From Eledone cirrhosa (Eukaryota): a stretch of 64,000 bases of DNA. The stretch is taken from assembly GCA_964016885.1 (NCBI GenBank), contig OZ024742.1, positions 178,064,001-178,128,000 on the forward strand, in the 5' to 3' direction. The notes beneath the pieces are model-generated. The model saw nothing but the letters and a program-made list of their open reading frames with translations, had not been told where the DNA came from and did not search any database. Both the position numbers and the translations under genes were made by a program. Each line of letters opens with the position of its first letter. Position 1 is the stretch's first letter. Shown here one piece after another: positions 27,422 through 39,971 of the stretch.

Positions 27422-27778
27422 ATACGATACTAACAAATGGAAACTATATTTATAAAACCATATTTATTTCATTATACATATTTCAAGGACACCAAGTTAA
27501 ATTATGGTGTGCTTTCATCAGATAAAATATAATATAGAGCAGTTTTATAAATAAATATTGACATACCCTTAAAGAATGCAACCATTACTGTTGGAAGCTC
27601 CCGGATAGTAATGGTTGCATTCTTTAAGGGTATGTCAATATTTATTTATAAAACTGCTCTATATTTATTATATTTTATCTGATGAAAGCACACCATAATT
27701 TAACTTGGTGTCCTTGAAATATGTATAATGAAATAAATATGGTTTTATAAATATAGTTTCCATTTGTTAATATCGTAT
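27422..27778. repeat. Fold-back palindrome (~170-bp arms) with a hammerhead on each strand
   Basis: 27422-27589 pairs with 27606-27778. Confidence 0.92.
27671..27735 (+). ncRNA. Type I hammerhead ribozyme (TATTTTAT family)
   Basis: TATTTTAT-CTGATGA-AAGCACACCA...TGGTGTCCTT-GAAA-TATGTA-TA-ATGAAATA. Confidence 0.8.
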
Positions 27779-27957
27779 TTTTACTCCAATTATTTGTTGA
27801 GTGCTTTATATTAGTTATAAAAATATTTGCTTGTTGTATCCCAACAATTTAAATAGAACTTTTACGTATATATATATACAAAGATATAGGTCAAACCATT
27901 TTATTCATTTCTACGATCGATTTTATTTATCATAATGCGTCAATAACAATTTGCAGA

Positions 27958-28755
27958 TCTTCTTCTTCTTCGCCCGCTAATTCTTGAAAGGGTCGTGGGA
28001 GTAGAGTCCGCAAACACGCCTCCCAGTGGGTCCTGTCGAAATCAACAGTCTCCAACTGATCCAGCTGGATCCCAAAGCGAGACCAATGAAGCTTATGGAT
28101 GTTATGCAGCCATCTTGCTCGGGATCTACCCCTGGGTCTCCTGCCAGTTGGTTTTGCCTGTAAAATCAGCCCACCGATATTTTCCTGACTCATTCTAACC
28201 GTATGCCCATTGTATCGGAGCTGTGATCTCTCAATTCGGAGAAGTAGCGGCTCTTTCTAATATGACTCTTTGATCGTATTCTTTCAGTCATTACCTAAGA
28301 TTCATGACCATAGGTAAGGGATGGCTCGAATACCGAATTGAAGATGGCTTTTACACCTACCTTCCTTCTTCTGGTTACGGAATGCTGAAGCTGGTGTAAT
28401 ATTGGCACCAACTGCTGCAATTCTTGCACTTAATTCAGCCTCCTGCCTTCTATCACTGGAGTCACGGCCCCGAGATACTTAAACTTCTCTACCTGCTTCA
28501 GTGGAACTCCATTCACATATCGAGTGCACTGCGCAAGCTTCCCTGAGAGGATGAGTGTCTCAGTTTTAGCAACACTGATTTTCATTCCAACGATGCAGCA
28601 CTCGGCATTGGACCTATCAAGTGCAAGACGAAGATCACCTTCTGTTGAGTTAAGTAACAACATGTCGTCCGCAAATTCCAGTCGACTGATTTTGCACCCG
28701 ACAATCATGATATCACTTCCAAACCGGTTGCACATGTCAATCCTGTTCATGTAAA
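27958..28755 (-). pseudogene. RTE-like LINE 3' fragment with (GAA)n tail
   Basis: LEFADDMLLL, MKISVAKTE, VEKFKYLG and PTGRRPRGRSRARW. Ends in GAAGAAGAAGAAGA. Confidence 0.88.
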
Positions 28756-28935
28756 TAATTGTTCCTACTTTTGGCACAAGGCCAGCAATTACCCAGTGCA
28801 TTACTGGTACTTTATGTTATCGACCCCGTAAGGATGGAAGGCAAAGTTAACCTCGGTGGGATTTGAACTCAGAATGGCAAGGGCCGTAACTCTATACGTC
28901 AAAGAATGGCGTCCGACCGTCTACCGATACTGCCA
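28755..28935 (-). mobile_element. SINE family A
   Basis: A/B boxes and family tail. Confidence 0.9.
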
Positions 28936-29727
28936 GGAGAGTTGACAGTACCGCACCCATTTATCCGAACACAAATATTCGAGCATTCCTCTAGAGACAC
29001 CAGGGCAGCAAAAAGCAGACTATCGATCCCATACTCCTGCACAACCTTCCACAGATATATATGTACATATATAGATAATTATATACACACATATAAATAC
29101 ATAATTTTAAGATGGGAATAAGAATAAGTATTATATGACAGTCTAATCTATAAGCAGGGTGAACAATATCAACGAGACGAATATTTAGTGCACTAAAAGG
29201 AAACGAAAAGAATATCTTATTAGAATGTAAAGGTAAGAGTAAAGGTCGAATTAATCAGATTCAAGGGTTTTATAAAAGAAACCGTGAAAGGTTCTATGTA
29301 AAAAAAAATAGGGAATAGTTCATTCTTTGCGTTAACGAGAATAATCTTAAAGGTTACTATTTCTAATTCCTCAGTCAAACAAAGATTACATTTAGTTTGC
29401 CTCCTCCATAAGATTTTACTGAATTATTAGTTCCTACAGAGTGCTGAATAGTATATTGTTTTGAGAAGAAAATAAGTTTTACTAAAGAGGCAGAATTATA
29501 TCATTTGTCATGCTTAAAGGATTGTATATGCGCATAAAATCTTATAAAATTACTATAGATAAAGGAATTACATTCGAGCTTTGAATACATCTCTCTGCCT
29601 TATATTGTTGTATTATGAACTCATATAATCTACCAAATATATATATAGGTCTCTGCATATAACCAGCACCACTATATATATTGTTTTTGTACATATAATC
29701 CGCCACCACTATGTATATACTTATATA

Positions 29728-30425
29728 TATATATGTTATCACCATCGCAAAATATATACTTTCATATATACATATCCACAACTCAACTCTATTCTTCTCT
29801 CTCTATATATATATATCTACCACCGCTATATATATATAATTATACACTTAATGCTGATACTTTCACACCTCATTCCTACTCATTACATATATATATATTT
29901 ATACAATATATTAATAAATGGAAACTATATTTATAAAACCATATTTATTTTATTATATATATTTCAAGGGCAACCAAGGCAAATTATGGTGCGCTTTCAT
30001 CAGATAAAATACAGATTTGTTTTATAAATAAATATTGACATAACCGGAAAAAAGACAACCATAACGGTTGGAGATTCCCAACCGTTAAGGTTGTCTTTTT
30101 TCCGGGTATGTCAATATTTATTTATAAAACAAATCTGTATTTTATCTGATGAAAGCGCACCATAATTTGCCTTGGTTGCCCTTGAAATATATATAATAAA
30201 ATAAATATGGTTTTATAAATATAGTTTCCATTTATTGATATATTGTATAAATATATATATATATATGTAATGAGTAGGAATGAGGTGTGAAAGTATCATC
30301 ATTAAGTGTATAATTATATATATATAGCGGTGGTAGATATATATATAGAGAGAGAGAAGAATAGAGTTGAGTTGAGGATATGTATATATGAAAGTATATA
30401 TTTTGCGATGGTGATAACATATATA
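29728..30425. repeat. ~700-bp fold-back palindrome with a hammerhead on each strand
   Basis: Axis GGTTGG-agattc-CCAACC (30066-30083). Arms ~345 bp with few mismatches. Confidence 0.93.
30138..30203 (+). ncRNA. Type I hammerhead ribozyme (mirror copy on minus strand, 29946-30011)
   Basis: TATTTTAT-CTGATGA-AAGCGCACCA...TGGTTGCCCTT-GAAA-TATATA-TA-ATAAAATA. 8-bp stem I. Confidence 0.83.
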
Positions 30426-37891: not shown

Positions 37892-38082
37892 ATAATTGTT
37901 TCTACTTTAGGCACAAGGCCAGCAATTACCCAGTGCATTACTGGTACTTTATTTTATCGACCCCGTAAGGATGAAAGGCAAAGTCAACCTCGGCGGGATT
38001 TGAACTCAGATCGTAAAGGGACGTAACTGTGCTGGAAAGCATGGCGTCCGACCCTCTACCGATACTGCCAATTCACCGCCCC
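37892..38082 (-). mobile_element. SINE family A, full length
   Basis: Starts GGCGGTGAATTGGCAGTATCGG. Flanking TGAAATAAT duplication. Confidence 0.92.
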
Positions 38083-38699
38083 TTGAAATAATGCCTGAAA
38101 TAATGTATCTTACTCAAGAAAACAATGCACCACTGGAAATCGAACTCACGAAGCTACGGTCGTGATCAGGACAAGCTAAATACTAAGAGAGTGACGTATT
38201 ACTTCCCGGTACTATTCCTTATTGATTGTTTGGCCTTGTGGTGTGTATTCACGATGCACATTACCACGGTAGTAAAAGAAACAGTTCAACATCATCTTCA
38301 TATTTTGTTACAAACCAGTTGTGCATTTTGGGGCCTTGGTGATGCGGATGCTTCCAGTGGGAGTACTGGAACTTGGTTTCCGAGTTGTAACCATGTACCT
38401 GTGGAAGCTCATCAACTTGCACATTAATTTCATGAGCAGGATGTTCCGTTGATCGAACCACTGCACTGGAACACACAACATCAAAAACTTGATATGAAAT
38501 ATGATTCTTGGTCTCAGAACATAATGTGCTGTAAACAAGAACGGCATATGAGAATAATGCAATGTAAATCTCCATCTAGTTGTAGGGCACCATTGGGACA
38601 TGCTTAGGGCATTTTATTTCTGGTGGAGTCTATCCCTCACAACATTTGAGCTCAGCTGATTTCTTAGAGAGTGAGAGAAAGAGATATTCTATCTGTTGA

Positions 38700-38800
38700 G
38701 AAGAAGAAGAAGAAGAAGAAGAAGAAGAAGAAGAAGAAGAAGAAGAAGAAGAAGAAGAAGAAGAAGAAGAAGAAGAAGAAGAAGAAGAAGAAGAAGAAGA
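38700..38800. repeat. (AAG)n microsatellite
   Basis: Directly visible. Confidence 0.97.
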
Positions 38801-39695
38801 AACCTCTGCTACTTATTTATCGAATCCGCCAAAAGGAGTTGACTTCGGTGGGATTTGAAATCAGAGCGCAGGAATGAAAATGAATACCGCAAAGCTTTGT
38901 ATCCGACGCCTCTTTATATTTTATCTATTTGATGTCGGGTTCATAACAACTTTTGTTGAAACTTTAGTGGCTTAAACTGTGAATAGATCAAAAACCTCTT
39001 TTATATAACATTTAAGTACAATTTCATTAACCGAATTTCGTAATTGTAGGGGCGGCATTGTTTTTGTTTAGTTTACTATTTTTACGAAGTTGAAATTATA
39101 TAAATTCGCCCTAAGGACTTCATTTTACCTGAGAAATGGTAAAGGCGTATTTTATTGAACGGATTTTGATATAAATGAACGGATTTTAGATATAAATGTG
39201 GGAAATGTTAAAGCTGTTTTTGTATTAAAGAGAAGCCCAAAGGTCGTATCTTCGTTGATAGATAGAAGTTTATGTGAAAATGTCACAATTTTATTTACTT
39301 TTAACTTCGAAAAAGGGAGGTGCTGCAAAATAGTAAGTTGAATGTATAGTAAACTGAATAAATGGTAAGCTTTAAAAAGAAACTCAGTCCTAGAATTGCC
39401 AAATAAATTTAATGAAAATATAATTAAACTTAGATTAAAAGAGGTTGTGTGACTTTAAACTACTAAACGTTCTTCAATAGATGTAAGGAAATCAAAAGAA
39501 AATAGGTAATATTGAATGTATTTTTTCGTTTATACACACACACTCACACACACACACAGACATATATATATATATATATATATATATATATATATATATA
39601 TATATATATATATATATATATATATATATATATATATATATATAAATATATTCAATGATATTAAAAAATGGAAACTATATTTATAAAACCATATT

Positions 39696-39756
39696 TATTC
39701 TATTATATATATTTCAAGGGTACCGAAACTTTGGTACGCCCTCATCAGATAAAATA
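39696..39756 (-). ncRNA. Type I hammerhead ribozyme (TATTTTAT family, single arm)
   Basis: Minus strand: TATTTTAT-CTGATGA-GGGCGTACCAAAGTTTCGGTACCCTT-GAAA-TATATA-TA-ATAGAATA. Flanks 39666-39785 are homologous to the 27.4 and 30 kb arms. Confidence 0.8.
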
Positions 39757-39971
39757 CAAAGTTTGTTTTATAAATATTGACATATCCAGGAACGAGATCT
39801 TAACGATTCTAGTTTGTCCTGGACAGTGAAGTAAAGAAGGGAAAGAGAAGAAAAGTCAAATATTTCAAATTATTAAGATGAGTATGTTGGCTTTGAATCA
39901 GTTATAAACATTTATATTTGTTGAATTACCAACAAATTGAATATCCCTTTTTGCTTATATATATATATATA

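Follow-up and report, generated by a model that had tools for sequence, protein, structure and literature searches.

Three loci in a 64,000-nt stretch of the Eledone cirrhosa genome (assembly GCA_964016885.1, contig OZ024742.1, positions 178,064,001 to 178,128,000; hereafter the window, from within which all sequence evidence comes) carry copies of one family with a predicted hammerhead ribozyme. We interpret these loci, L1, L2 and L3, with a probability of roughly 0.8, as short insertions that represent protein-less end modules (pseudo-long terminal repeats, pLTRs) of Penelope-like elements (PLEs), in which the mirror arm was made by reverse transcription at each insertion and was not inherited. 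L1 (27422-27778, 357 nt) and L2 (29728-30425, 698 nt) are head-to-head palindromes, and this observation is confirmed. The arrangement of an adjacent inverted, 5'-truncated copy, placed head to head with a palindromic junction, is full at L1 and L2 and is represented by an inverted tail piece at L3. The layout itself, with opposite-strand hammerheads and inverted pLTRs, is already published for PLEs, to which the first-pass annotation had not assigned the loci. The loci are built from the following parts:

27422..27588, minus strand: L1 left arm, 167 nt; this copy continues across the centre, and a (TA)n run directly abuts its outer end
27589..27607, no strand: L1 centre, a 19-nt imperfect quasi-palindrome; 5' foot of the family's upstream hairpin
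27608..27778, plus strand: L1 right arm, 171 nt; the inverted copy, beginning inside the upstream hairpin
29728..30071, minus strand: L2 left arm, 344 nt; outer part (~29728-29900) non-family, past a (TA)n run
30072..30077, no strand: L2 centre, a 6-nt loop
30078..30425, plus strand: L2 right arm, 348 nt; outer part (~30250-30425) mirrors non-family sequence and ends at (TA)n
39650..39785, minus strand: L3 arm; a long (TA)n run adjoins its end
39783..39825, minus strand: L3 upstream hairpin, intact and unduplicated

The two arms of L1 align with 166 of 171 columns identical and differ by one substitution and one 4-nt indel. Those of L2 are identical in 338 of 348 columns, with six substitutions and one 4-nt indel. 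Over the shared core of 118-134 nt, identity within a locus is 97.0% at L1 and 100% at L2, compared with 85.9-87.9% for all four L1-L2 arm pairs; L3 matches the other arms at 77.6-85.8%. Identity within a locus exceeds that between loci, and therefore the arms cluster by locus. The first-pass annotation of this DNA had proposed that each palindromic arm is closer to its own partner than to the other locus, which holds. It had named clustering by left and right side as the mark of a single ancestral element of the miniature inverted-repeat transposable element (MITE) type; the arms of the three loci in the window group by locus instead. Its claim that the two palindromes have different centres and arm lengths stands in part. 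The junctions (19-nt centre versus 6-nt loop) and the arm lengths (167/171 versus 344/348 nt) do differ, but in homologous coordinates the symmetry axes are no more than ~1 nt apart.

Both axes are located inside one conserved hairpin upstream of the hammerhead. The hairpin is predicted to form at L1, L2 and L3 without the mirrored arm (-10.6, -10.2 and -15.9 kcal/mol, respectively). At L1, the minus-strand copy reaches the hairpin foot and the inverted arm starts at the hairpin loop. L2 turns a few bases further into the hairpin, on a 2-bp GG/CC patch, and the two loci hold distinct junctions. In a visual count of the alignment, 10 of 13 bases of the L1 centre that break the mirror agree with the unduplicated upstream sequence of L3. 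Additional pairs in the L1 centre are of the G.U/G.T type and are available on the plus strand only. The plus-strand folding preference of L1 (-6.6 versus -1.2) is only a hint, as it is seen with RNA parameters alone and the folded segments include mirrored bases; with DNA parameters the centres fold near zero, at -0.4 to -1.0 kcal/mol.

The palindrome of L1 is extended on one side by a tail, which has a counterpart next to L3:

27779..27866, plus strand: tail on one side of L1, 88 nt; a UUGUUG/CAACAA stem-loop is predicted within it, and (TA)n comes next
39864..39955, plus strand: L3 inverted tail piece, homologous to the L1 tail, followed by (TA)n

The L1 left arm and the L3 arm stop 13-16 nt past the core and then meet (TA)n, and the L1 right arm continues for 88 nt before reaching (TA)n. 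The tail aligns to 39864-39955 with a local score of 43, against a maximum of 34 in 5000 shuffles (E 1e-6 in a separate comparison). Because it recurs beside L3 in the same inverted orientation, the extension is element-derived, and L3, which had been taken for a single arm, is composed of a direct copy and an inverted tail piece.

The outer ends of L1 and L2 are flush with (TA)n, and L3 ends at (TA)n. The window is AT-rich, with a GC content of 0.24-0.52 per 2 kb, and contains many microsatellites and reverse transcriptase fragments resembling those of long interspersed nuclear elements (LINEs). Its self-comparison revealed nine fold-back palindromes, L1 and L2 among them, and 11 spaced inverted repeats. 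Of 11 inverted-repeat elements (the nine fold-backs and two of the spaced repeats, picked by eye), 9 have (TA)5 or a longer run no more than 20 nt from an outer end. Under the null model the mean is 1.6, and none of 2000 placements gave as many as 9, although alignment ends may drift into the self-complementary (TA)n.

Both arms of L2 cross a (TA)n run and then mirror ~170-190 nt more of non-family sequence, and each side of this stretch terminates at a TA run. This outer sequence has no match elsewhere in the window except one 20-nt hit. Its assignment to the family tail was rejected, since local scores of 17-21 against the L1 tail are at shuffle level (mean 18). A fold-back that ran on into flanking DNA and was rejoined at (TA)n is slightly preferred to copying from a read-through (3'-transduced) template. 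A 20-nt stretch (19/20, E 0.002) is common to the left flanks of L1 (27369-27388) and L2 (29662-29681), which may be due to chance, local duplication or a shared donor flank.

The hammerhead motif was located with a descriptor that required the core together with stem II, a helix III of palindromic sequence and four or more stem I pairs. The descriptor has eight matches in the window, five of which are the arms of L1, L2 and L3, and none in each of 20 block-shuffled windows. The five predicted hammerheads are:

27465..27529, minus strand: L1 left; core CUGAUGA from 27521, predicted cut after 27473
27671..27735, plus strand: L1 right; core from 27679, predicted cut after 27727
29946..30011, minus strand: L2 left; core from 30003, predicted cut after 29954
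30138..30203, plus strand: L2 right; core from 30146, predicted cut after 30195
39696-39756, minus strand: L3; core from 39748, predicted cut after 39704

All five arms contain the CUGAUGA/GAAA/UH core with helices I and II. Each has an 8-bp stem I, an internal loop, which is the variable spacer of the originally described motif, and a 12-13-bp distal helix. In stem II, 9-10 pairs surround a C.C mismatch that is conserved. Helix III consists of a self-complementary stretch of 8 nt that has an AUA triplet at its end and a predicted self-duplex energy of -2.2 to -3.2 kcal/mol. The motif thus has the sequence features of a type I minimal hammerhead positioned within a terminal repeat, and is a predicted ribozyme. 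In an alignment of four rows from the three loci, 75 of 76 cells are paired and two pairs are changed on both sides, compared with 41-47% pairing in slid controls. The three pairwise comparisons hold 3, 8 and 5 substitutions in the 16 stem pairs, which break no pair, and none of the 12 core positions changes; random placement would retain all pairs with a probability of 0.028, 0.0003 and 0.0036, respectively, at 50% transitions. Two further statements of the first-pass annotation, that the three loci share a hammerhead motif and that its stem II varies among them yet remains paired, are borne out by these data. Since the differences between loci leave the stems paired, they probably predate insertion and originated in distinct source lineages.

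The two hammerheads of each palindrome are on opposite strands, and a transcript across L1 is predicted to fold as one hairpin of -268 kcal/mol. The pair would therefore be unable to act as a dimer in cis. A transcript across a palindrome is predicted to contain one sense ribozyme, buried in the long hairpin, and the hammerhead would be cleaved only as a dimer.

Two other families in the window also include inverted arms. An unrelated hammerhead family at 14611-15770 has a textbook layout of an inverted arm flush with (TA)n (346/347 identical), a direct copy, and a tandem copy 466 nt on. Its GGCTG-CT-CAGCC hairpin is extended into the palindrome centre in the first copy, together with a further short duplication, and is un-extended in the tandem second copy. 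This family is an internal control for hairpin-centred palindrome formation, and the inverted layout of L1 and L2 recurs in unrelated families of the window. A related-looking family at 39963-40507 adjoins L3 and shares its (TA)n. Its inverted arm breaks off within the hammerhead core, a repeat recurs with a spacing of ~310 nt, and ~25-36 nt of tail precede (TA)n.

We propose that the units are formed as follows. A PLE reverse transcriptase/GIY-YIG protein encoded elsewhere would nick a (TA)n tract, and complementary DNA (cDNA) would begin at one of two fixed RNA positions, producing an arm with or without the tail. The cDNA would halt at the GC-rich hairpin ~50-90 nt upstream of the hammerhead core. 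There, its end would pair with a complementary patch of the hairpin, located either within the same molecule, as a fold-back, or in another cDNA whose synthesis was primed from the opposite strand of the target, and be extended into a head-to-head repeat. The clustering of the axes fits a fixed template end or a stop of the reverse transcriptase. Because the inverted arm of L1 bears a tail that the other arm lacks, a single target-primed cDNA folding back cannot give L1. It would need either two opposite-strand-primed cDNAs joined by hairpin microhomology or an unevenly trimmed free hairpin intermediate. For the same reason, within the PLE explanation, the head-to-head joining of two cDNAs is by a small margin our preferred route at L1 and L3, and the choice among the sub-mechanisms is nearly even. 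The near-identical arms indicate that each palindrome was made from its own source, and the structure-preserving differences between loci point to separate source RNAs.

The first-pass annotation had left the origin of the palindromes between generation anew at each insertion and homogenisation by gene conversion. The former is supported by the locus-wise grouping of arms, the differing junctions of L1 and L2, the pairing-preserving differences and the same layout in unrelated families. Gene conversion is unnecessary, and leaves the one-sided tail and the structure-preserving divergence unexplained. It may have acted as a minor later process.

Several observations weigh against our interpretation. 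Only three independent loci are available, and 19 of 500 shuffles equal the observed pairing. The stem test weakens to 0.18, 0.03 and 0.07 at 100% transitions. The 10.1-11.1 pair is A-U in L1 and L2 and G.U in L3, not the usual G-C, and there is no bulged or unpaired base after position 9 in the hammerheads of L1-L3. In PMC4209133, the hammerhead consensus includes G10.1-C11.1 pairing and a base left unpaired after position 9; both are consensus traits, not core requirements. No Rfam hammerhead match is present among all 13 rows obtained for 27400-30460 at E values up to 10, nor among the best 150 of 214 matches for the window; the Rfam matches listed are all below threshold and mostly microRNA-like. 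The one-sided extension at L1 and L3 measures 88-92 nt, compared with 30-40 nt for the published tail. No target-site duplication is readable within the (TA)n borders, where a TA duplication would be hidden because the borders are themselves (TA)n. Searches with Pfam found no PLE reverse transcriptase or GIY-YIG fragment in 144 frames of at least 35 aa around the loci, nor in 146 frames of at least 62 aa elsewhere in the window, where the reverse transcriptase matches are LINE-like. Solo PLE ends are expected to lack such an open reading frame (ORF). The proximity of the two axes is also expected from a shared ancestral junction, and is the best argument for one.

Such a junction would fit the alternative that one ancestral palindromic element spread and that its arms were later homogenised by gene conversion or by quasi-palindrome template switching, a process described between inverted arms in PMC8604942. 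Besides the nearly coincident axes, the strand-wise alignments through the centres score alike (41.5 and 45.5). However, neutral decay with conversion would not keep the stems paired and the core spared between loci. The loops are odd-numbered in one palindrome (19 nt) and even-numbered in the other (6 nt), the non-mirrored bases of L1 match the upstream sequence of L3, and other families combine arms that are 99-100% identical with different junctions. We therefore consider a common ancestral palindrome improbable. The short, non-coding units with long inverted arms and TA-rich insertion sites also resemble a foldback-type MITE (as defined in PMC8969392), a DNA transposon of the non-autonomous kind, with long terminal inverted repeats in which a hammerhead-like motif occurs by chance. 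The clustering of arms by locus argues against it, as do the asymmetric ends, the one-sided tail, the unequal lengths (357 versus 698 nt), the mostly one-armed L3, the RNA-level covariation in the motif, and the lack of a transposase among the frames of the window scanned with Pfam, and we regard a MITE origin as highly improbable.

A non-LTR retrozyme (LTR, long terminal repeat) would be a small hammerhead RNA circle of ~300 nt that uses a borrowed reverse transcriptase and inserts inverted monomer pieces. This overlaps with the PLE interpretation, except that the unit would not be part of an autonomous PLE end, and animal retrozymes have been proposed as PLE derivatives (10.64898/2026.07.22.740005). 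No ORF is attached to L1-L3, and the neighbouring families have tandem periods of 466 nt and ~310 nt. Nevertheless, retrozymes are defined in PMC7229834 as tandem head-to-tail repeats, and the window contains no tandem copy of the L1-L3 family, so that we give this origin little weight. Host DNA repair, with fold-back at breaks in fragile (TA)n, or assembly or read chimeras could create palindromes independently of retrotransposition. The mirror of L2 does include non-family DNA, and several of the nine fold-back palindromes are without a recognised hammerhead. Yet the centres lie at the same element-internal hairpin rather than at (TA)n, the arms differ by 1-6 substitutions and indels, unlike a fresh chimera, and one-sided element-derived tails are present; repair or chimerism is accordingly very unlikely. 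The reading of L1-L3 as solo PLE end modules is compatible with the missing tandems, as direct tandem pLTR copies, found in two neighbouring families, are not required of solo inverted units. L1-L3 behave like PLE end units, and their formal membership is likely on the basis of anatomy, because no PLE protein was found in the window.

L1 and L2 were also considered as the opposite termini of a single complete PLE, a possibility that was rejected because the DNA between them holds only an RVT_1 fragment at 28433-28816 (E 5.8e-5), which we take to be RTE-like by motif. It belongs to a decayed reverse transcriptase fragment at 27930-28816 on the minus strand (RVT_1, E 5.8e-5), apparently unrelated to both loci. 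A nearly intact LINE at 18793-24186 on the minus strand encodes an ORF1-like protein of 635 aa, an AP endonuclease, a reverse transcriptase and a zf-RVT domain, and LINE-related fragments are located at 24772-25385 and 60616-62280. The region 16955-17168 is a near-perfect palindrome (106/107), with its left end flush with (TA)n and a CUGACGA...GAAA hammerhead-like motif in each arm. The palindrome at 16530-16757, flush with (TA)n, shares two short motifs with L1-L3 without a full hammerhead core, and is possibly a distant relative. Further inverted-repeat insertions without a recognised hammerhead are at 702-833, 9068-9135, 9158-9758, 46660-46778 and 48146-48328; of these, the 9068 and 46660 insertions resemble relatives of one another and of the window's first 90 bases. 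Solo hammerhead-like cores occur at 31466 (minus strand), 59796 (plus), 14115 (minus) and 8819 (minus). The core at 31466 passes the descriptor, and the AU-repeat helix III of the L1-L3 family recurs in that at 59796.

A 29-nt motif of the family has no exact match in metagenome_contigs or in viral_contigs. Nine sequencing runs are listed for 27300-30600, none of them RNA; three from one sample hold 0.54-0.57 of 321 words, and small shares were not used. The literature listings on octopus hammerheads and Penelope inverted duplications contain no description of the L1-L3 family or of mirrored flanks, in a scope that excluded most subscription papers. Penelope families in Octopus vulgaris are treated in PMC13282606, the cited portion of which contains neither "hammerhead" nor "palindrom".

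As an annotation, L1-L3 are ordinary, and MITE finders would mislabel such units. We tentatively extend the proposal, in a form that we consider doubtful, to PLE-type insertion in this genome in general: it may routinely join two opposite-strand cDNAs, one with a short-site and one with a tail-site start, inside the conserved 5' hairpin at a cut (TA)n, with a lone cDNA folding back and copying the flank, as at L2. If true, this would supply a mechanism for the unexplained inverted pLTR and one-sided tail. PLEs would then be a source of host-sequence palindromes, double-stranded RNA, and local inverted duplications of host DNA.

L1-L3 resemble animal non-LTR retrozymes (PMC7229834; bioRxiv 10.64898/2026.07.22.740005) in being short and non-coding, with a type I hammerhead and low GC content. 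Unlike the head-to-tail tandem repeats of retrozymes, the family is present in the window only as inverted or partial units. The metazoan PLE hammerheads described by Cervera and de la Pena (2014, PMC4209133) are of the minimal type I, form opposite-strand pairs 100-700 bp apart, and vary extremely within a genome. They have in common with L1-L3 the CUGAUGA/GAAA/UH core, a long helix II, a palindromic helix III suited to dimers, high variation within the genome accompanied by compensatory changes, and the opposite-strand pairs. L1-L3 differ from them in the A-U or G.U pair at 10.1-11.1, the missing bulge after position 9, the C.C mismatch in helix II, and a longer helix I with the 12-13-bp distal helix; cleavage of L1-L3 is predicted.

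For PAc, the Poseidon element of Anolis, Frangieh et al. (2024, PMC11167929) report that both target strands are cut and extended in vitro, that two start sites bound the tail, and that a dimer is predicted; hammerhead cleavage was unneeded in vitro. PAc and L1-L3 both have an AT-rich target, two end positions with a tail between them, and a predicted tail stem-loop with an AC-rich arm. In contrast to L1-L3, the PAc hammerhead overlaps the start of an ORF, and its tail is 30-40 nt long.

The closest parallels are the insertion units of endonuclease-containing (EN+) PLEs. Arkhipova et al. (2013, PMC3846280) describe head-to-head pLTRs overlapping by 15 bp, a tail, palindromes at the junction that they attribute to self-priming, and captured host DNA. 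According to Craig et al. (2021, PMC8557442), PLEs have an inverted 5'-truncated copy at the 5' end and, at one of the ends, a tail of 30-40 bp, by a mechanism called undefined; hammerheads are typically located in pLTRs and are absent from Naiads. L1-L3 differ from these units in having no ORF between or beside the arms, a tail of 88-92 instead of 30-40 nt, the ~170-190 nt of non-family DNA mirrored at L2, and no readable target-site duplication. They share with them the head-to-head inverted copies, the palindrome or overlap at the junction, the extension at one end, the AT-rich or microsatellite target and the occasional capture of host DNA. How the inverted copy forms is not settled in the cited parts of PMC3846280, PMC8557442 and PMC11167929. 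The value of L1-L3 is mechanistic, as these short copies retain the junctions, a 3' end with two positions and, in one instance, a mirrored flank.

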